A stretch of 64,000 nt of DNA, from assembly GCA_040753015.1 (NCBI GenBank), contig JBFMHM010000001.1:211157-275156 (forward strand). Reading direction: 5' to 3'. The number at the start of each line of letters is the position of its first letter. Positions within the stretch are counted from its first letter, which is position 1. The translations under genes and the position numbers were made by a program. The notes under the pieces are model-generated. The model was not told the DNA's origin and made no database searches. It saw only the letters and a program-made list of their open reading frames with translations. Below are positions 15,001 through 49,492 of the stretch, one piece after another. Source of the stretch: Candidatus Omnitrophota bacterium (GTDB lineage: Bacteria; Omnitrophota; Gorgyraeia; Gygaellales; JBFMHM01).

Positions 15001-15040
15001 AATAAAAAACCTGTCTCGTCAATGATTTTCGAGACAGGTT
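15001..15040 (-). terminator. Rho-independent terminator after rpsI (bidirectional hairpin)
   Basis: Stem aacctgtctcg / cgagacaggtt flanked by A-run and T-run. On the minus strand the hairpin is followed by UUUUUUAUUU. Confidence 0.7.
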
Positions 15041-15079
15041 TTTATATCTTTAATTTTAAATTTTTCTAGTTTTTTTCTC

Positions 15080-17550: not shown

Positions 17551-17557
17551 GATAATT

Positions 17558-17585
17558 GTAGAGACGCATTGCAATGCGTCTCTAC
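17558..17585. repeat. 28-bp perfect palindrome GTAGAGACGCATTGCAATGCGTCTCTAC (copy 1, asd-truA junction)
   Basis: Perfect inverted repeat. Overlaps the asd stop codon. Identical to the copy at 32090-32117 and near-identical to 48496-48523. Confidence 0.9.
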
Positions 17586-30360: not shown

Positions 30361-31582
30361 AGATATTTTCTTTCGTGACTTTGTTAATTTTTAAATTTAC
30401 TAATTCTCGCCTTAGATCATTTTTTGAATCTACCAATATCTTTATATAATTATCAGTATAACCGACCTGGAAGCCGTTTTTTTTATCACGAGCCGACTCA
30501 ACTAAAACCCTAACTTCTTTATTTAAGAATTTTTTATGGTATTGGTAAGCTAAATTATCACAAACTTTTTTCAATTCTAAGAAGCGTTTTTTCTTATCTT
30601 CATCAGAAACTTTTGGAAAAAACTCAACAGCCTTTGTACCAGCTCTATCACTGTAAGAAAAAATATGAGTCCTAGAAGGATTAATTTTTTTTATAAAATT
30701 TAGTGTGTTTAAAAAATTTTTATTAGTTTCATAAGGAAACCCTATTATAACATCAGTTGTAATTGCAATTTGCGGAATTTTTTTTCTTAGATTACTTACT
30801 AATCCTAAAAAATCTTTTGTCAAAAATTTACGGTTCATTTTTTTTAAAATTCTATCGTCTCCGGATTGCAAAGGTAGATGTAAATGTTTAGAGATAAATT
30901 TATAATTACAAATTGCTTTAATTAAATCTTTACTAACATCTTCTGCCTCGATCGAAGAAAGACGAATTCTAGCAATATTATTAATTTTTCCTAATCGCTC
31001 TAAAACATCGGCCAATGATAGCTTAGGCGACAAATCCCGGCCATAGGCACCTAAACAAATCCCAGTTAAAACTATCTCTTTAAACCCCCTCTCAGTTAAA
31101 CAATTTACTTCTTTGATAATTTCATCTAGCGGGCGGCTTTTTGATCTGCCGCGTACCAGAGGCACCTTACAATACGAACAAAAATTGTCACAGCCATCTT
31201 GAATTTTTACAAATGCCCGATCATGGCCTTTAAAATCGGAAATACCATAAGTTTTCTGACTATTTTTTATAATCTCAACCCTGCCGCCAAACCTATTTAA
31301 AATTTTATCCTTATCTTTTTCAACAAGACAACCCGTTACAATAATTTTGGCTTTTGGGTTTTCTTTGATAGCACGGTTGATTAAATAGAAAGATTCTCTG
31401 TCGGCTTTATCTGTTACTGTACAAGTATTAATTACATAAACATCAGCTATTACCCCAGAAGATACTTCCGATAAATTTTGAGGGGATAAATTTTCACGGA
31501 TAGCCTGCGACTCATACTGATTTACTTTACAACCAAGGGTTAGAATTTTAAATGTTTGCATGAAATAATTACGGGCGAACAC
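30341..31582 (-). CDS. MiaB-family radical SAM tRNA methylthiotransferase (MtaB-like)
   Basis: 413 aa. N-terminal MTTase Cys region (TLGCKVNQYES), radical SAM CxxxCxxC (CDNFCSYC), C-terminal TRAM-like region. Confidence 0.8.
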   Translation of the reverse strand: MFARNYFMQTFKILTLGCKVNQYESQAIRENLSPQNLSEVSSGVIADVYVINTCTVTDKADRESFYLINRAIKENPKAKIIVTGCLVEKDKDKILNRFGGRVEIIKNSQKTYGISDFKGHDRAFVKIQDGCDNFCSYCKVPLVRGRSKSRPLDEIIKEVNCLTERGFKEIVLTGICLGAYGRDLSPKLSLADVLERLGKINNIARIRLSSIEAEDVSKDLIKAICNYKFISKHLHLPLQSGDDRILKKMNRKFLTKDFLGLVSNLRKKIPQIAITTDVIIGFPYETNKNFLNTLNFIKKINPSRTHIFSYSDRAGTKAVEFFPKVSDEDKKKRFLELKKVCDNLAYQYHKKFLNKEVRVLVESARDKKNGFQVGYTDNYIKILVDSKNDLRRELVNLKINKVTKENIYAKYPC

Positions 31583-32312
31583 ATAGGTTCACCCCTACAG
31601 CTACAAAAATAGCTGCAGTATCTACTTTTAATATTCTCTTACCAAGTGTTACTGGTTTCGAACCATGTTTAATAGCGAATTCGACCTCTTCTTTTGTAAA
31701 ATCTCCCTCTGGGCCGATTAAAGCTAAAATTTTCGGACAGGCACATGGGCCTGTCCCTACAGAACAAATTGCATCCTTAAATGTAACTCGTTTACCCTCT
31801 AATGTCGGGATAATTATTAAATCATATTTTTCGTCAAAAATATCTTTAAAAAATTTAATTTCATCAATCTTAGTAATTATTGGATTGGAACTTTGTTTGG
31901 CAGCCTCTCTTGCAATTTTCCTAAAACGCTCGGCTTTTTGCCTTACTTTATCAACCGACAATCTTACAATTGTGCGTTCAGTAACTATTGGTATAATCCG
32001 AAAAACACCAAGCTCTGCCAGTTTTTCGACAATATATTCAAACTTTGCATTTTTAGGAAGCGCGCAGGCAATAGTCAGTTCGGACGTCTGTAGAGACGCA
32101 TTGCAATGCGTCTCTACAATTTTCACAACAATCTCATCTTCATTAATCTTATCAATTATGCCAGCATAACTATTTCTTTTTTCATCAAATAAATTTATCT
32201 TATCACCCAAATTATATCGGCGGGATTTTATAATATGCGCAATCTCTTTGGGGTCAGTAATTAAAATTAAATTACTATTAATGTTTTTTGATTCTGCGAA
32301 AAATTGACTCAT
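31569..32312 (-). CDS. rsmE: 16S rRNA (uracil1498-N3)-methyltransferase
   Basis: 247 aa. RsmE-like C-terminus (LGKRILKVDTAAI). Contains the 28-bp palindrome in-frame (VETHCNASLQ). Confidence 0.8.
   Translation of the reverse strand: MSQFFAESKNINSNLILITDPKEIAHIIKSRRYNLGDKINLFDEKRNSYAGIIDKINEDEIVVKIVETHCNASLQTSELTIACALPKNAKFEYIVEKLAELGVFRIIPIVTERTIVRLSVDKVRQKAERFRKIAREAAKQSSNPIITKIDEIKFFKDIFDEKYDLIIIPTLEGKRVTFKDAICSVGTGPCACPKILALIGPEGDFTKEEVEFAIKHGSKPVTLGKRILKVDTAAIFVAVGVNLCVRP
32090..32117. repeat. 28-bp perfect palindrome GTAGAGACGCATTGCAATGCGTCTCTAC (copy 2, inside the rsmE coding sequence)
   Basis: Identical to 17558-17585. Translated in-frame within rsmE. Confidence 0.9.
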
Positions 32313-32318
32313 AATAAA

Positions 32319-32394
<76 letters not shown>

Positions 32395-35581: not shown

Positions 35582-36022
35582 TTACGGACCACCTGGCGCC
35601 TCGCCCCAAGGATCAGGAGGGCCGCCTCTACCCTCTACAGACATATCATGTATTTGGCAATCTTTATTAAGCCACAAAACATCCTGCCCCGAAGACGATC
35701 TTTGAGCTACAGCGAAAAAATTGTCGGCATTCGCGTTTTCAACACGAAAATTCCAATTTCGATTAACACTATAAGGAATGCTTAACCCAAGTTCAGTATT
35801 GCATGCCTCTGTCGTAGCACAACTCCTGTAAATCTTGGTAGATTCAAAAATATCTTTCTCTGCAGCACAAATTAATTGTAAAATTGCCGCTGCTTCATTA
35901 TTAATTGCCTTTTCTCTACGGCCAAAATAATTGACCATGCCAATACCTGCTAAAATCCCAATTAAAAGAATTGTAATTACAAGTTCAATAAGGGTAAAAG
36001 CAATTTTTTTATTTTTTATCAT
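35582..36022 (-). CDS. Type IV pilin-like protein (Ala at -1)
   Basis: Likely start MIKNKKIAFTLIELVITILLIGILAGIG. The track start at 36052 is probably an upstream extension. Confidence 0.7.
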   Translation of the reverse strand: MIKNKKIAFTLIELVITILLIGILAGIGMVNYFGRREKAINNEAAAILQLICAAEKDIFESTKIYRSCATTEACNTELGLSIPYSVNRNWNFRVENANADNFFAVAQRSSSGQDVLWLNKDCQIHDMSVEGRGGPPDPWGEAPGGP

Positions 36023-36029
36023 TATAATC

Positions 36030-36398
36030 TTAAATTCGCAATACATCGTCATTAATATTGCCGCTGATTAAATTAATCGTAATAATATATCTGTTTGCTG
36101 TGCAGCGTTCGGCGACAGCTTCATTACCAGATGAATAATAACTAAAAAATCTTTCTGGAGAACATCCTCCTAAACCTCCAAAACCTAAATCTGCTAAATT
36201 TTCAGTATATGCCCCATGCTCATTCTTCCAGATTTCTTGAGCAGTGCGAATTTCAGCCAACATTCTATATGCTTCAGCTGCCCTGCCTCGTTCAAGCTGT
36301 TTTTGAAATCTGGGTATTGCAAGGGTAGCAAGAAGGCCCAATACTATAATTACAACTACCAGCTCGATTAGGGTGAATGCTCTACCTTGCTTCTGCAT
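36030..36398 (-). CDS. Type IV pilin-like protein (Ala at -1)
   Basis: 122 aa. QGRAFTLIELVVVIIVLGLLATLAIPRF. Confidence 0.75.
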   Translation of the reverse strand: MQKQGRAFTLIELVVVIIVLGLLATLAIPRFQKQLERGRAAEAYRMLAEIRTAQEIWKNEHGAYTENLADLGFGGLGGCSPERFFSYYSSGNEAVAERCTANRYIITINLISGNINDDVLRI

Positions 36399-37086
36399 TC
36401 GCTATGACCCCCAACCCCCAAGCCTGGTCACAAACTAAATCACCATCAGTATCAACACAAAATTCTCGATTACCAGTCACCAGATCCGTATATTCAAAAA
36501 GTATGCCGGGATTACCATCATTATCAAGAATAGGATCAGCATCAGCTGGCCAAGCCACTATAACAGCATCATCTCCTGCACTTCCTGACGCTCCATCTAC
36601 TCGATCACCTACTTGCGGATGACCACCGCCAGCATTTCCACCGCCGCCTGCGCCAAGACCACCGTCGGCACCACCTGCGCCGCCTGGGATATTTAGAGGC
36701 GATAACGCGCCCGTAGCTAAATCAATGTTTATTTTATATTCTTCTGGCCAATTAGGCTGCTTACCACTAGCATTTCTGCTGCATCTATAAGCAACAGCTA
36801 AATTCTGCCCAGCACGATTTGCGACTATCCGATAAAAAAAATAATGACCAGAATTACACTGTTTTAGCTCTGCCTCAACATCAAACCCTGTTAAATTACC
36901 GTGCTTAACCAAATAAACTTGCGCGTCATCACGAATTGATCCAAGCATTTGATAGGCCTCAGCTGCGCGGCCCTTTTCAAGTTGTATTTGATAGCGCGGC
37001 AAAGCAATTGTAACTAAAAGCCCGATTACAATTATCACAACCACAAGCTCAATTAAGGTAAATCCAAATTTTTTATTCATAATCAC
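36382..37086 (-). CDS. Type IV pilin-like protein with a Gly-rich C-terminal extension
   Basis: 234 aa. KKFGFTLIELVVVIIVIGLLVTIALPRYQ. C-terminal GGAGGADGGLGAGGGGNAGGG low-complexity tract. Confidence 0.75.
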   Translation of the reverse strand: MIMNKKFGFTLIELVVVIIVIGLLVTIALPRYQIQLEKGRAAEAYQMLGSIRDDAQVYLVKHGNLTGFDVEAELKQCNSGHYFFYRIVANRAGQNLAVAYRCSRNASGKQPNWPEEYKINIDLATGALSPLNIPGGAGGADGGLGAGGGGNAGGGHPQVGDRVDGASGSAGDDAVIVAWPADADPILDNDGNPGILFEYTDLVTGNREFCVDTDGDLVCDQAWGLGVIANAEAR

Positions 37087-37096
37087 CGCCTACAAA

Positions 37097-37134
37097 GTAG
37101 AGACGTCTCGCCGCAATTAGGCGGACGTCTCTAC
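37097..37134 (-). terminator. Stem-loop immediately downstream of the first pilin gene (attenuator or partial terminator)
   Basis: gtagagacgtc...gacgtctctac arms (11 bp) with a nested ccgc/gcgg hairpin. The arms match those of the 28-bp palindrome family. Only a weak U-run follows. Confidence 0.45.
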
Positions 37135-37176
37135 GAATACATCAAAAACAGAAGCGTCCCCTTTTACCCTTTTTAC

Positions 37177-37617
37177 TTATTGTTGAATCATGTTGGCACA
37201 ACGACCAGCTGCAAAAACATTTTCCGGCGTAATCTGACCATTATGATTAAGTAAAATTCTACCTCCATCACAATATCCCCCATCTCTTTCAGCTACAGCA
37301 GTAAATTCAGTGGCATCTACATCCTCTATTGAAAAGTCCCAGCCATTTAAAGCATCTATCGCGGGTCGTAATGCACCATCAAGTTCATTATCCAAATCTC
37401 CGTTTGCAGCTAAATTACCCGAATAAGTATTAGTTGAAGCATGGACAATACTCTGAGCCTTCCTTATCATATCTAGAACTGCTAATGCACGAGCAACTTG
37501 CCCTCTTTCAAGCATCTTTCGATATTGCGGCAAACCTAATGTAATCAATAAACCAATAATTATAATTACAATTATAAGTTCTACCATCGTAAAACCTTTT
37601 CCCCTAAACATTCTCAT
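37177..37617 (-). CDS. Type IV pilin (candidate major pilin)
   Basis: 146 aa. RGKGFTMVELIIVIIIIGLLITLGLPQY. First gene after the long leader with a strong SD (AAAGGAGGAG). Followed by a hairpin. Confidence 0.8.
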   Translation of the reverse strand: MRMFRGKGFTMVELIIVIIIIGLLITLGLPQYRKMLERGQVARALAVLDMIRKAQSIVHASTNTYSGNLAANGDLDNELDGALRPAIDALNGWDFSIEDVDATEFTAVAERDGGYCDGGRILLNHNGQITPENVFAAGRCANMIQQ

Positions 37618-38013
37618 TTTCTCCTCCTTTGTAACCGCAAAGACGCTAAATTCGCTAAAACGCGAAATTGTTTTTTTCTGCGTTTTCGCGGTTGTATTTT
37701 GTGTTTTTTATTCTTTTTTGTTGGTATTTTTCTTTTTTTGCGTTTTGGCGGTTGCACCTCCTATCTAAAGAATAACACAAATTTATAATAAAAACAAGTT
37801 TAGAAGCGTAAAACGTAAAGCGAAAAATGTAAAATTAAAACTTAAAATTTAAAGTTTCTTGCCCCTTAAAGTCAAAATACTTGAACCTAAAATATTAGCA
37901 AGTTCGCCTGCTTCTTATAATATTCAATACAAATTTATATGCTCTTGTTTTTGAATCCATTTTAAATTTTAAACTATCACTTTGCGTTTTTAGCTTTACA
38001 CTTTACGTTTTCT
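37618..38013 (-). promoter_or_regulatory. 396-bp AT-rich non-coding leader/promoter region upstream of the pilin genes, with repeated motifs
   Basis: No ORF of 60 aa or more. Minus-strand direct repeats CAACCGC(C/G)AAAACGCA about 60 nt apart and an inverted copy GCGTCTTTGCGGTTAC next to the SD. Also AAAACG(T/C)AAAGTG repeats. I found no convincing -35/-10 pair. Confidence 0.4.
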
Positions 38014-39267
38014 TTACCTGCCGCCGCCGATATTCACCATACTAAATATAGGCAGATACATTGAAACAACCAACACGCCAACAATTCCGCCCATAAACAC
38101 AATCATCAGCGGCTCAAACATTGCCGTAAAACGAGTAAGCTGTGTTTCTACTGCCTCACGGTAATATGCAGCAACTTTTTTAAGCATTGCTCCTAGTTCA
38201 CCGATCTCTTCTCCTACGCGTACCATTTGAACCAACATCGGCGCGAAAAAATTACTTTTTTCTAAAGGCCCTGCTAGAGACTTACCATCACGCACATCAG
38301 CCTTAACTTGCCTAATAATATCCTGCATAATTACATTGCCGCTTGAACGCTCAACAATATCCAAGGCATAAAGTATAGGTACACCGCTTTCAACTAATGT
38401 AGAAATTTCGGATGTAAAACGTTCAACTGCCACAGTTTTAAAAAAATCTCTAAGCATAGGAAGATTAAATAACAAAGTATCAAATTGACGCTTGCCTGAA
38501 TCAGTTTTTACATAGGCCTTAAATGCATAAACACCACCGGCAATAAGTAGAAAAATTAAAAAGAAGTAATGGCGCATAAAATTGCTAAAACCAATAACAA
38601 ATTGTGTCAAGGCCGGCATTTGGCCGCCGAGATTTTGGAAAATATCGGCAAAAGTAGGAATAATTTTAAATGTAAAGAAAAATATCGCAATGATACAAAC
38701 ACCGAAAAGTATTGCCGGATAAATTAATGCTGAAATCATTTTTCTTCTAAACGCTGCTTGTTCTTCTAGATATGCGGCAAGCCTGTCCAAAATAAGAGGC
38801 AAATTACCGCTTGCCTCTCCTGTCTCAACTAGATTCGCCCACATACTTGAAAAAATTTTGGGATGCCGTGCTAGCGCCTCATGAAAAGATACCCCGCCTT
38901 TAACATCTTCGACTATCTTTAGAGTCGCGTCTAATAAAATCTTGCTTTCAACTTGTTTTACAATAATTTCCAAGCTCTTTAATAAACTAATCCCTGCGCC
39001 AAGCATAGTCGCAAGCTGCCTTGAAAACATAACTAAATCATTTAGTCTTACACCACGGTGCATTTTTGTATGGACAATTGGAATATTTAATGATGCAGGT
39101 GATACAGCAGATTTCTCGTTTATAATCTCTGGAATTTCTGTTATATTTGTTACAATAAGCCCGCGATTCTGCAGGCGCGATAATAATTCATCAGAGCTAG
39201 CTGCGTCTTCAAGACCTTTTACCTTTTTGCCCGAAATATCCCTTGCCTCAAAATTAAATTTTGCCAC
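38014..39267 (-). CDS. pilC: Type IV pilus inner-membrane platform protein
   Basis: 417 aa. GspF/PilC family with two repeated T2SS_F domains and three TM regions. Confidence 0.85.
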   Translation of the reverse strand: MAKFNFEARDISGKKVKGLEDAASSDELLSRLQNRGLIVTNITEIPEIINEKSAVSPASLNIPIVHTKMHRGVRLNDLVMFSRQLATMLGAGISLLKSLEIIVKQVESKILLDATLKIVEDVKGGVSFHEALARHPKIFSSMWANLVETGEASGNLPLILDRLAAYLEEQAAFRRKMISALIYPAILFGVCIIAIFFFTFKIIPTFADIFQNLGGQMPALTQFVIGFSNFMRHYFFLIFLLIAGGVYAFKAYVKTDSGKRQFDTLLFNLPMLRDFFKTVAVERFTSEISTLVESGVPILYALDIVERSSGNVIMQDIIRQVKADVRDGKSLAGPLEKSNFFAPMLVQMVRVGEEIGELGAMLKKVAAYYREAVETQLTRFTAMFEPLMIVFMGGIVGVLVVSMYLPIFSMVNIGGGR

Positions 39268-47705: not shown

Positions 47706-48488
47706 TCAATATTTTTTATAAATTTGGGTTAATTTAATAAAATCCTTTTGACCAAGGGCTTGGGGCCGGAGATTAAAATTGAATTCCTTATCTGTTAATA
47801 AAATTTCCTTTGGGAAAAATTCTTTTAAGCTATTGCGAAGCGTTTTTCTTCTTTGTTGAAAAGATCGGCGTATAATCTTAAAAAATATCTCTTCATCGTC
47901 TTTTTTTAAAACTGATTCTTTTATCGCCAGCATTATAAAAGAAGAATCTACTTTAGGTATCGGACGAAAACAAGTTCTGGAAATATCAAAGATAAGTTTA
48001 GGATTAGAATGATATTGGACAAAAAAACTAAATGCGCCTTTTAAGCTTGAATTATCATTATAAATTATCCGGCGGATAAATTCTTTTTGTAATGTTAAAA
48101 ATATATAATCAATGTATTTTTTATTTTCTAATAAATGCGCAATTATTGGGCTAGAAATATAATATGGAAGGTTGCCGACAACTTTAATTTTTTGGCTTAA
48201 ATTAGGAAAAACTCTTGGTATATCTAATTTCAAAAAATCCAGATTAATAATTTCAATATTACCGAAACTGGATAATTCTTTTTCAAGTTCTAAAACAAGC
48301 TTTTTATCAATTTCACAGGCAATCAGCTTTTTAACATTCTTTACTATTCTTTTTGTAAGCTCGCCGTGCCCAGGGCCAATTTCTAAAACTATATCGTCTT
48401 TAGTTAAACTAAGCGTGTTTATAATATTATTAATAATATTTTTATCTATTAAAAAATTTTGACCTAGCCTTTTTTTTGCAAAAATCAT
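47706..48488 (-). CDS. rsmA: 16S rRNA (adenine1518/1519-N6)-dimethyltransferase
   Basis: LGQNFLIDKNII and EIGPGHG motifs. The ATG at 48486-48488 is preferred and forms an ATGA overlap with the pdxA stop. The track start at 48512 is a TTG inside the palindrome. Confidence 0.9.
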   Translation of the reverse strand: MIFAKKRLGQNFLIDKNIINNIINTLSLTKDDIVLEIGPGHGELTKRIVKNVKKLIACEIDKKLVLELEKELSSFGNIEIINLDFLKLDIPRVFPNLSQKIKVVGNLPYYISSPIIAHLLENKKYIDYIFLTLQKEFIRRIIYNDNSSLKGAFSFFVQYHSNPKLIFDISRTCFRPIPKVDSSFIMLAIKESVLKKDDEEIFFKIIRRSFQQRRKTLRNSLKEFFPKEILLTDKEFNFNLRPQALGQKDFIKLTQIYKKY

Positions 48489-49492
48489 TGCTTTTGTAAA
48501 GACGCATTGCAATATGTCTCTACCGCTAACTTAATCGCTTCAATTATTGAACCAGGATTAGCTTTATTTTTGCCAGCAATATCAAAAGCGGTGCCGTGTA
48601 ACGGAGTAGTCCTGATAAATGGTAGGCCGCAGGTAAAATTAACCCCCTGCTCATATCCTAATATTTTAAGCGGTATCAATGCCTGGTCATGATACATTGC
48701 AACAAGCACATCATATTTCTTCTCTCTAACTAATTCCTTAACGGCTGAATCAGCCGGTATTGGCCCATAAACAAGGCAGCCTTTATTCTTTGCTTGTATA
48801 ATTGCCGGTGTAATAACTTTCTTTTCTTCATCGCCAAAAATACCTCCGTCTGACGCATGAGGATTTAAACCACAAACACATATACGCGGTTTTTTTATAT
48901 TAAAAATTTTTTTTAGAGATTGATTTGTAATTATTATAGTCTTGAAAATATTGCTTTGAGTCAATTGCTTGCTAACATCCTTGAGAGCAACATGGCGAGT
49001 AACTAGAGTAAAATAATATTTGCCGACAATCAACATCATCAAAAAATCTTTTATATTAAATTTACCTGCTAGATATTCTGTATGGCCGTTAAATTTTATA
49101 CCGGCTTTATTTACCGCTTCTTTATCAACAGGCGCTGTAACTAAACAATCGGCCTTTTTTTCTTTAATTAATTTTACCGCTAACTCTAAATATTCAAATG
49201 ATGCCCTGCCATACCTTGCATCAACCTTGCCAAATTTAAAATTATTTCTTGGCACATTATTTAAATCTATGAATTTAAAGTTTTTCGCTTTTCGCTTTTC
49301 GCTTTTCGCTTTGTTAAACGCCCATCTATCTCCAATAACCGCAAACTCGGCCAACTTTGCTATCCCTGGATTGTTTAATCCCTTAAAGATAACCTCCGGC
49401 CCAATACCAGAAGGATCCCCCATAGTTATAATAATTCTTGGTTTAATCATTTTATTTGTATATATGCTTTTTTCTTTAACCCATCGAGCCAC
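48485..49492 (-). CDS. pdxA: 4-hydroxythreonine-4-phosphate dehydrogenase
   Basis: 335 aa. ITMGDPSGIGPEV N-terminus. The last 11 codons (VETYCNASLQKQ) are encoded by palindrome copy 3. Confidence 0.9.
   Translation of the reverse strand: MARWVKEKSIYTNKMIKPRIIITMGDPSGIGPEVIFKGLNNPGIAKLAEFAVIGDRWAFNKAKSEKRKAKNFKFIDLNNVPRNNFKFGKVDARYGRASFEYLELAVKLIKEKKADCLVTAPVDKEAVNKAGIKFNGHTEYLAGKFNIKDFLMMLIVGKYYFTLVTRHVALKDVSKQLTQSNIFKTIIITNQSLKKIFNIKKPRICVCGLNPHASDGGIFGDEEKKVITPAIIQAKNKGCLVYGPIPADSAVKELVREKKYDVLVAMYHDQALIPLKILGYEQGVNFTCGLPFIRTTPLHGTAFDIAGKNKANPGSIIEAIKLAVETYCNASLQKQ
48496..48523. repeat. 28-bp palindrome copy 3 (GTAAAGACGCATTGCAATATGTCTCTAC, 2 mismatches) at the pdxA 3-prime end
   Basis: Near-identical to copies 1 and 2. 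Confidence 0.85.

Follow-up and report, generated by a model that had tools for sequence, protein, structure and literature searches.

REP sequences are palindromic stem-loops of 20-40 nt that are linked to transposases of the TnpA_REP, or RAYT, type. One class of these enzymes, TnpA_REP subclass 2.4, is the same as group 4 in the scheme of Bertels (Quentin, Siguier, Chandler and Fichant 2018, PMC6006769; Bertels et al. 2017, PMC5581495). Its members have a median length of 194 aa, carry the HuH motif NH[IFV]H together with WQ and YIxNNP, and are abundant in Cyanobacteria and Bacteroidetes while being scattered in other phyla; the associated REPs are either "canonical long" or "double foot", the latter having 5' GT[AG]G mirrored by 3' C[TC]AC (PMC6006769). 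Group 4 is rare in Proteobacteria and spread over 17 classes (Bertels et al. 2017, PMC5581495). Published biochemical assays of RAYTs cover groups 2 and 3 only.

Hairpins with a GTAG foot are also known from the classical REP/BIME system of E. coli and from the group 3 systems of Pseudomonas, Stenotrophomonas and Marinomonas, where REPs flank a single-copy Y1/HuH gene; for E. coli and group 3, single-stranded cleavage beside the hairpin has been shown in vitro. Classical REPs are lineage-specific, strictly extragenic, often bulged, usually arranged in REPIN/BIME pairs and active on one strand only. A further set, the GTAG REP superfamily, includes the cyanobacterial families GTAG-12, GTAG-15 and GTAG-16 (Di Nocera, De Gregorio and Rocco 2013, PMC3733652). 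Its members are described there as short GTAG-tagged stem-loops found for the most part after genes, where the neighbouring ORFs are tandem or convergent, with some copies inside genes and the frame unbroken.

Here we describe a palindrome family in a 64,000-nucleotide stretch (hereafter the window) of the genome of an uncultured Candidatus Omnitrophota bacterium. Sequence matching located the 28-mer GTAGAGACGCATTGCAATGCGTCTCTAC, without any mismatch, at 17558-17585 and 32090-32117, just where a sequence-only reading of the same DNA had reported identical perfect palindromes; 100 dinucleotide-preserving shuffles gave 0 matches, in agreement with its view that chance is an unlikely source. That reading had also placed a copy with two mismatches at 48496-48523; the position is correct, but the sequence found there, GTAAAGACGCATTGCAATATGTCTCTAC, differs from the 28-mer at three positions. 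The related element with 11-bp arms that it had described at 37097-37134 is likewise present, as a 38-bp form with arms GTAGAGACGTC/GACGTCTCTAC. A relaxed scan of the 64-kb window detected no further copies. All four copies end in GTAG...CTAC, and each arm of the palindrome contains GAGACG. The elements and the genes that they overlap are listed below, the elements being named in line with the reading that we favour.

17558..17585, no strand assigned: REP copy 1, at the asd/truA junction, a perfect 28-bp double-foot palindrome whose 12-bp stem encloses a 4-nt loop
17582..18625, minus strand: asd (aspartate-semialdehyde dehydrogenase), stop codon within REP copy 1
31569..32312, minus strand: rsmE (16S rRNA U1498 methyltransferase), containing two in-frame REPs
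31735..31760, minus strand: second REP type in rsmE, a single-foot hairpin GTAG-GGACAGGC-CCATGT-GCCTGTCC
32089..32118, no strand assigned: REP copy 2, the 28-mer at 32090-32117 plus T/A flanks, forming a 30-bp perfect palindrome inside rsmE
37097..37134, no strand assigned: REP copy 4, a 38-bp long-stem double-foot variant, intergenic, with prepilin-type genes on either side
48485..49492, minus strand: pdxA, C-terminal tail encoded by REP copy 3
48496..48523, no strand assigned: REP copy 3, decayed, with three mismatches and a weakened hairpin, at the end of pdxA

Single-strand folding of copies 1, 2 and 4 gave energies of -13 to -15.6 kcal/mol as DNA and -19.8 to -27.1 kcal/mol as RNA, with z about -7 relative to shuffled sequences in both cases; the 28-bp form reached -13 to -14 kcal/mol as DNA and about -20 kcal/mol as RNA. 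Copy 4 has a slightly different architecture, in which the 11-bp arms are followed by a one-base bulge, a 4-bp inner stem and a 7-nt loop. In copy 3 most of the stem has disappeared and the DNA hairpin is lost (-2.1 kcal/mol, z 0.18). At 28 bp, with one 38-bp variant, the elements fall within the size range of REPs, and their ends have the mirrored feet of the double-foot form.

The agreement with published double-foot REPs extends to the sequence itself. Among the 28-mers in Table S1 of the subclass 2.4 survey that share these arms are GTAGAGACGCACGGCCGTGCGTCTCTAC, a Chloroflexus aggregans sequence, and GTAGAGACGTTGCATGCAACGTCTCTAC, whose source, CyspE01, is apparently a Cyanothece sp. (PMC6006769). 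The published and the present elements have in common a length of 28 nt, GTAG/CTAC feet, a 12-bp stem, a 4-nt loop, identical arms GTAGAGACG/CGTCTCTAC and a patchy distribution over many phyla. They differ in that the inner CATTGCAATG of the window is not found in Table S1, and in that Omnitrophota, candidate-phyla-radiation bacteria and phage contigs lie outside the published sample. Compared with the GTAG superfamily, which is defined above all by an unpaired tag at one end, the tag in the window is mirrored and base-paired. Compared with classical REPs, the double-foot family has a foot that is identical across phyla, occurs as single copies, is a perfect palindrome and includes REPs inside the transposase gene.

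The genes around all four copies lie on the minus strand, and NCBIfam profiles confirmed the asd, truA, rsmE, pdxA, ksgA and prepilin-type annotations. The window (1-64000) is one long co-directional gene array, with 68 of its 69 ORFs of at least 90 aa on the minus strand and a GC skew that is negative throughout. As the sequence-only reading had proposed, copy 1 supplies the TAG stop of asd (17582-17584) from its GTAG, copy 2 lies inside rsmE, and copy 3 encodes the last residues of PdxA (VETYCNASLQ; tail ..AVETYCNASLQKQ / VETYCNASLQKQ, up to the stop) immediately before ksgA. Copy 2 is translated in frame, as VETHCNASLQ. The truA ATG (17550-17548) follows 7 nt past copy 1 and the ksgA ATG 7 nt past copy 3, where the pdxA stop and the ksgA start overlap as ATGA; in these 7-nt gaps (17551-17557 and 48489-48495) there is no space for a ribosome-binding site outside the stem. 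Such spacing is not a general rule, as 467 REP sides in other loci had no peak at that distance.

Several other features of the window were recorded. A tRNA-Ala(CGC) gene lies at 32319-32394 on the minus strand, immediately upstream of rsmE, and was the sole above-threshold match in an Rfam scan of the window. The Rfam family RF02938 (COG2827 RNA) scored 15.7-16.5 bits against a gathering threshold of 49.1 (E about 1), with a likeness confined to the hairpin and loop, and was dismissed as a chance resemblance. Directly left of copy 2, at 32078-32089, the sequence GTTCGGACG-TCT is like a degraded left arm with three mismatches to GTAGAGACG, for which chance is a possible source. Positions 35582-39267 hold a gene cluster for a type IV pilus or type II secretion, with several prepilin-type genes and, after them, a PilC/GspF homologue; copy 4 sits between two of these pilin genes. 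At 15005-15043 a hairpin with a 14-bp stem between A- and T-runs (AAAAACCTGTCTCG...CGAGACAGGTTTTT) resembles an intrinsic terminator that works in both directions, and has no relation to the GTAG family.

Had the palindromes in rsmE and pdxA been conserved coding sequence, the peptides that they encode should recur in orthologs. The RsmE of the window and NCBI MEW5758103.1, a protein of a Candidatus Omnitrophota MAG, have the same sequence, and the nearest other homologues are at most 46% identical; because of this distance there is no close relative in which the site can be compared with and without the element. The REP peptide was found in 0 of 119 other RsmE homologues. In a 16-sequence alignment it fills the variable linker between the PUA-like and methyltransferase domains, where it accounts for 10 of 13 linker residues without a net gain in length. 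For PdxA, the family profile and the solved structures stop just short of the REP peptide. Since none of the 119 RsmE homologues contains the peptide and the PdxA profile ends before it, the palindrome has been acquired rather than conserved as coding sequence, and both peptides are, judged from these comparisons, lineage-specific. Elsewhere, copies inside ORFs are net insertions of 4-13 aa; replacement in place of insertion was considered on the basis of RsmE, which has no length gain, yet these other copies do gain residues and no rule emerged.

The second REP in rsmE is of a different type. It is the only copy of its kind in the window and is also read in frame (..VGTGPCACP..), adding about 5 aa that are absent from 15 homologues. 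Its shape is that of the "canonical long" REPs of subclass 2.4 (Table S1, PMC6006769).

In-frame palindromic insertion is a property that the window copies have in common with the Rickettsia palindromic elements. The latter are reportedly inserted in frame in coding genes and tolerated in loops, and are said to be about 100-150 bp long, confined to Rickettsia and without a GTAG foot, and they are not known to have a Y1 transposase partner.

To place the window copies in a wider context, we turned to other genomes and viral contigs. The pattern GTAGAGACG-N10-CGTCTCTAC occurs at a minimum of about 120 loci each in viral contigs and in species-representative genomes, covering at least 10 phyla, and with a relaxed spacing (GTAGAGACG-N(4-30)-CGTCTCTAC) at least 120 viral-contig loci were found, 127 of the 152 matches listed being exactly 28 bp. 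The exact 28-mer of the window is present at no fewer than 119 loci in species-representative genomes. Among the hosts listed are Patescibacteria, Planctomycetota (Kuenenia, Brocadia), Bacteroidota, Ignavibacteria, Dadabacteria, Beggiatoa-like Gammaproteobacteria, Chloroflexia, Cyanobacteriota/Sericytochromatia, Nitrospirae, Acidobacteriota and a Pelobacter MAG. A literature search with the sequence string returned only primers and unrelated work.

Across these loci the inner 10 nt vary (CGATTAATCG, CAAAATTTTG, CACGGCCGTG and others) while self-complementarity is kept. In a set of 49 distinct variants, base pairing at the three stem positions that vary holds in 90-100% of cases, each position using 3-5 pair types including G-U. 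The covariation score was 0.26, whereas shuffles gave 0.07 and none of 500 came as high; all slid controls were lower. Double-change cells numbered 57 compared with 15 (again 0 of 500 as high); the arms, being fixed by the search pattern, are uninformative in this test. The structure of the family is a 12-bp stem with a 4-nt loop. Metagenome contigs also hold a long-stem subfamily, with 30-36-bp forms that have the 11-bp arms of copy 4, near-identical 34-bp forms among them; one form, GTAGAGACGTCTCGCCGAAGGCGGACGTCTCTAC, differs from copy 4 in the loop alone, and the 38-bp variant is absent from the viral contigs. A RAYT homologue lies at the REP in 2 of 53 long-variant loci. Half or nested copies were seen at two positions (L024:1034 and L083:3757) and at one genome locus, for example the first 18 nt followed by a full copy (GTAGAGACGCATTGCAAT+GTAGAGACGCATTGCAATGCGTCTCTAC), and may be footprints of copying.

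In other loci, 244 distinct copies were placed relative to genes. Sixty-nine lie inside long ORFs and are restricted to the two stop-free frames (VET..ASL in 43, RD..VST in 26), 18 provide the upstream ORF with its TAG stop and 10 are at or near other ORF ends. The remaining 147 (about 60%) are intergenic or unassigned; by gene layout, intergenic copies lie in 76 tandem, 32 convergent and 13 divergent settings, typically about 20 nt past the upstream stop. At tandem junctions, GTAG provides the TAG stop in 9 cases, or in 18 when counted more loosely. Both positions of GTAG-tagged REPs, downstream of genes and inside them, had been described by Di Nocera et al. 2013 (PMC3733652), with which the placement between tandem and convergent genes agrees. 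In the viral loci (L001-L120), double-foot REPs with other inner sequences are often about 20 nt or less away from genes for head protease, major head and tail proteins. These genes were considered as partners of the element and set aside, because their recurrence as neighbours is explained by related phage contigs.

When all ORFs within 3 kb of the palindromes were clustered, one family stood out, comprising 16 proteins (about 190-230 aa), each encoded at a different genome locus. The Y1/HuH gene itself contains the exact 28-mer in 15 of the 119 genome loci listed, all of which were fetched solely by the exact 28-mer, and the sixteenth gene contains two copies with one mismatch each. About half of the 16 genes have additional flanking copies, a REPtron-like layout. 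The proteins carry the motifs MPNHxH, FGPQxxNLxSIIRGFK, WQ and YIxxNP, with NH[IFV]H as part of the signature. In NCBIfam they match NF047646 best, the model named "REP-associated tyrosine transposase", with E-values of 1e-16 to 1e-17 and 58-61 bits, which is below the curated cut-off of 80 bits; Pfam Y1_Tnp gave a weak match. In motifs, in length and in having a REP inserted between HuH and Y, these linked proteins of other genomes correspond to subclass 2.4.

Within the transposase gene the palindrome is always located in the loop directly after the HuH strand, in either of two frames, and this indifference to frame speaks for the nucleic-acid hairpin, and not the peptide, as the thing that is kept. 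With a profile search, no fewer than 7,996 homologues were obtained (E <= 1e-10). Among the best 120 of them 114 have a REP-derived peptide in this loop, read in frame 0 in 82 proteins, in frame 2 in 29 and in both frames in 3, a list biased toward the peptide since the search profile itself contained it; five of the other six have a degraded REP peptide. The linked RAYT proteins are about 47-54% identical to each other, compared with a 9-nt foot that is identical across phyla, a comparison biased by exact-match sampling. No RAYT gene was found in the viral loci or in the 64-kb window. At one locus (L230:4694-5708), nine REPs form three triplets with a period of 54 bp, which lie before, within and after a single RAYT gene, with inner sequences alternating between CATTGCAATG and CAATGCATTG types.

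Taken together, the results make it very probable that all four elements represent one double-foot GTAG REP, belonging to the type that goes with TnpA_REP subclass 2.4 / RAYT group 4. What supports this assignment is the covarying hairpin, its dispersal over genomes and phage contigs, its linkage to a RAYT in other genomes, its tolerance within coding sequence and the presence of one decayed copy. It is also the outcome that the sequence-only reading had listed as a REP-type mobile element, and the GTAG foot, the covarying stems, the copies embedded in and flanking RAYT genes elsewhere and the occurrence of the arms in published REPtron tables all favour that candidate. Several points weigh on the other side. 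The 64-kb window contains no RAYT gene; with only 4 copies in 64 kb, half of which run into coding sequence, the set is unusual for repeats termed "extragenic"; the GTAG of the double-foot form is base-paired, in contrast to the unpaired guide of classical REPs; the perfect dyad would suit a dimeric double-stranded-DNA-binding protein equally well; and the RsmE element, having no net length gain, is not what simple insertion predicts.

We infer that the window copies were spread by a RAYT, and a mechanism can be proposed by analogy with IS200/IS605 and with the RAYTs of E. coli, Stenotrophomonas and Marinomonas. The hairpin would extrude when the DNA is single-stranded at the replication fork, and a Y1/HuH transposase encoded elsewhere in the genome would recognise the GTAG foot and the stem. 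The enzyme could then cleave and rejoin single-stranded DNA beside the hairpin, with GTAG used in choosing the cleavage site, such that the hairpin is copied or moved to new sites. From the geometry of the element, we further infer that a perfect palindrome with a foot at both ends would present the same substrate on both strands. Copies would persist where they do little harm, between co-directional genes and at gene ends, where GTAG can act as a TAG stop, and also in frame in variable loops (as VET..ASLQ or RDA..VST); they would subsequently decay by point mutation, as copy 3 has.

An alternative is that the copies are RNA hairpins selected by the host, acting as terminators, attenuators or barriers to 3'-to-5' decay, with the repetition of the sequence being incidental. 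We consider this unlikely as an origin. In its favour, the predicted RNA hairpins are very stable (the -19.8 to -27.1 kcal/mol given above), every copy is on the strand that is transcribed, in operons whose genes run in one direction, and most intergenic copies in other loci come shortly past gene ends. E. coli REPs are said to make upstream mRNA more stable, and where they lie within about 15 nt of a stop codon they reportedly lower translation. Against it, no T-run follows any of the copies on the coding strand, all of which were checked, and so they are not intrinsic terminators, as the sequence-only reading had suggested they might be. Moreover, two copies are within coding sequence, and regulation leaves unexplained why an identical 9-nt foot recurs in at least 10 phyla, in phage contigs and in RAYT genes. 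Side effects on mRNA are nevertheless plausible, with a stable hairpin at the asd stop and a hairpin that would cover the ribosome-binding regions of truA and ksgA. RNA regulation is best seen as a possible secondary effect of a REP, not its origin.

Much less probable is that the palindrome is a MITE-like element, with 9-bp terminal inverted repeats around a 10-bp core, mobilised by a classical DDE transposase. The constant outer arms and variable core, the dispersed copies and the nested and half copies would all be in keeping with such an element. The sequence-only reading had raised this possibility together with target-site duplication, and inspection of the flanks does not bear it out: no target-site duplication was seen at the window copies or in 238 copies elsewhere, where the only regularity was a weak preference for a pyrimidine before the foot (TT and CC 2.2-fold enriched). 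At 28 bp the element is also far below the typical 70-300 bp, the covariation of the inner stem argues for a hairpin rather than two protein-binding ends, and the sole recurrently linked gene encodes a Y1/HuH transposase.

The perfect dyad symmetry and the GAGACG in each arm could instead point to a restriction-modification site, or to an operator for a dimeric regulator that binds double-stranded DNA; inverted GAGACG/CGTCTC is the BsmBI/Esp3I type IIS sequence. The protein-binding site that the sequence-only reading had offered sits poorly with the positions of the element, which lies inside ORFs and at gene 3' ends, unlike operators. Conservation spans the full 9-nt foot including GTAG, beyond the hexamer, and the element is present in phyla with unrelated restriction-modification repertoires. 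As the RAYT link accounts for the data without either idea, we regard both as more remote still. Least credible of all is an artefact of assembly or library preparation common to metagenome-assembled genomes: nearly all matches are indeed MAGs or metagenomic viral contigs, with no real BLAST matches to the palindrome in cultured-phage and plasmid collections, but in rsmE, pdxA and more than 100 RAYT genes the element leaves the reading frame open, the inner sequences vary with covariation, the same REPs have been published from sequenced genomes such as Chloroflexus aggregans, and the isolate Alkaliflexus imshenetskii has the RAYT.

In summary, the type of repeat and transposase was already known, and what is added here is an Omnitrophota host, together with two copies and a single-foot REP that are translated within rsmE and pdxA. 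An odd palindrome of an uncultured Omnitrophota bacterium can thus be assigned, with the confidence expressed above for the REP reading, to a described repeat/transposase system, which is extended to phyla and phage contigs beyond published surveys. For genome annotation, it would follow that VET..ASLQ and RDA..VST peptides, and TAG stops located in GTAG feet, are signs of REP insertion and not of protein function.

Looking forward, a broader proposal can be made, although we hold it only tentatively and think it improbable as a whole: the GTAGAGACG double-foot REP and the subclass 2.4 RAYT may constitute a single system spreading horizontally across bacteria, in which the hairpin embedded in the transposase gene functions in cis, as a master copy or autoregulatory site kept at the DNA or RNA level, while phages spread or exploit the REP. 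If true, this would differ from the vertically inherited, lineage-specific model of REPIN-RAYT systems. Room for a more mobile, horizontal lifestyle is left by the identity of the foot set against the divergence of the proteins, by the RsmE element without a length gain and by phage REPs without a RAYT. With one and the same foot in different phyla and a hairpin retained within the transposase gene in two frames, the wider data raise the question of whether subclass 2.4 is domesticated and vertically inherited, or mobile and horizontally transmitted.
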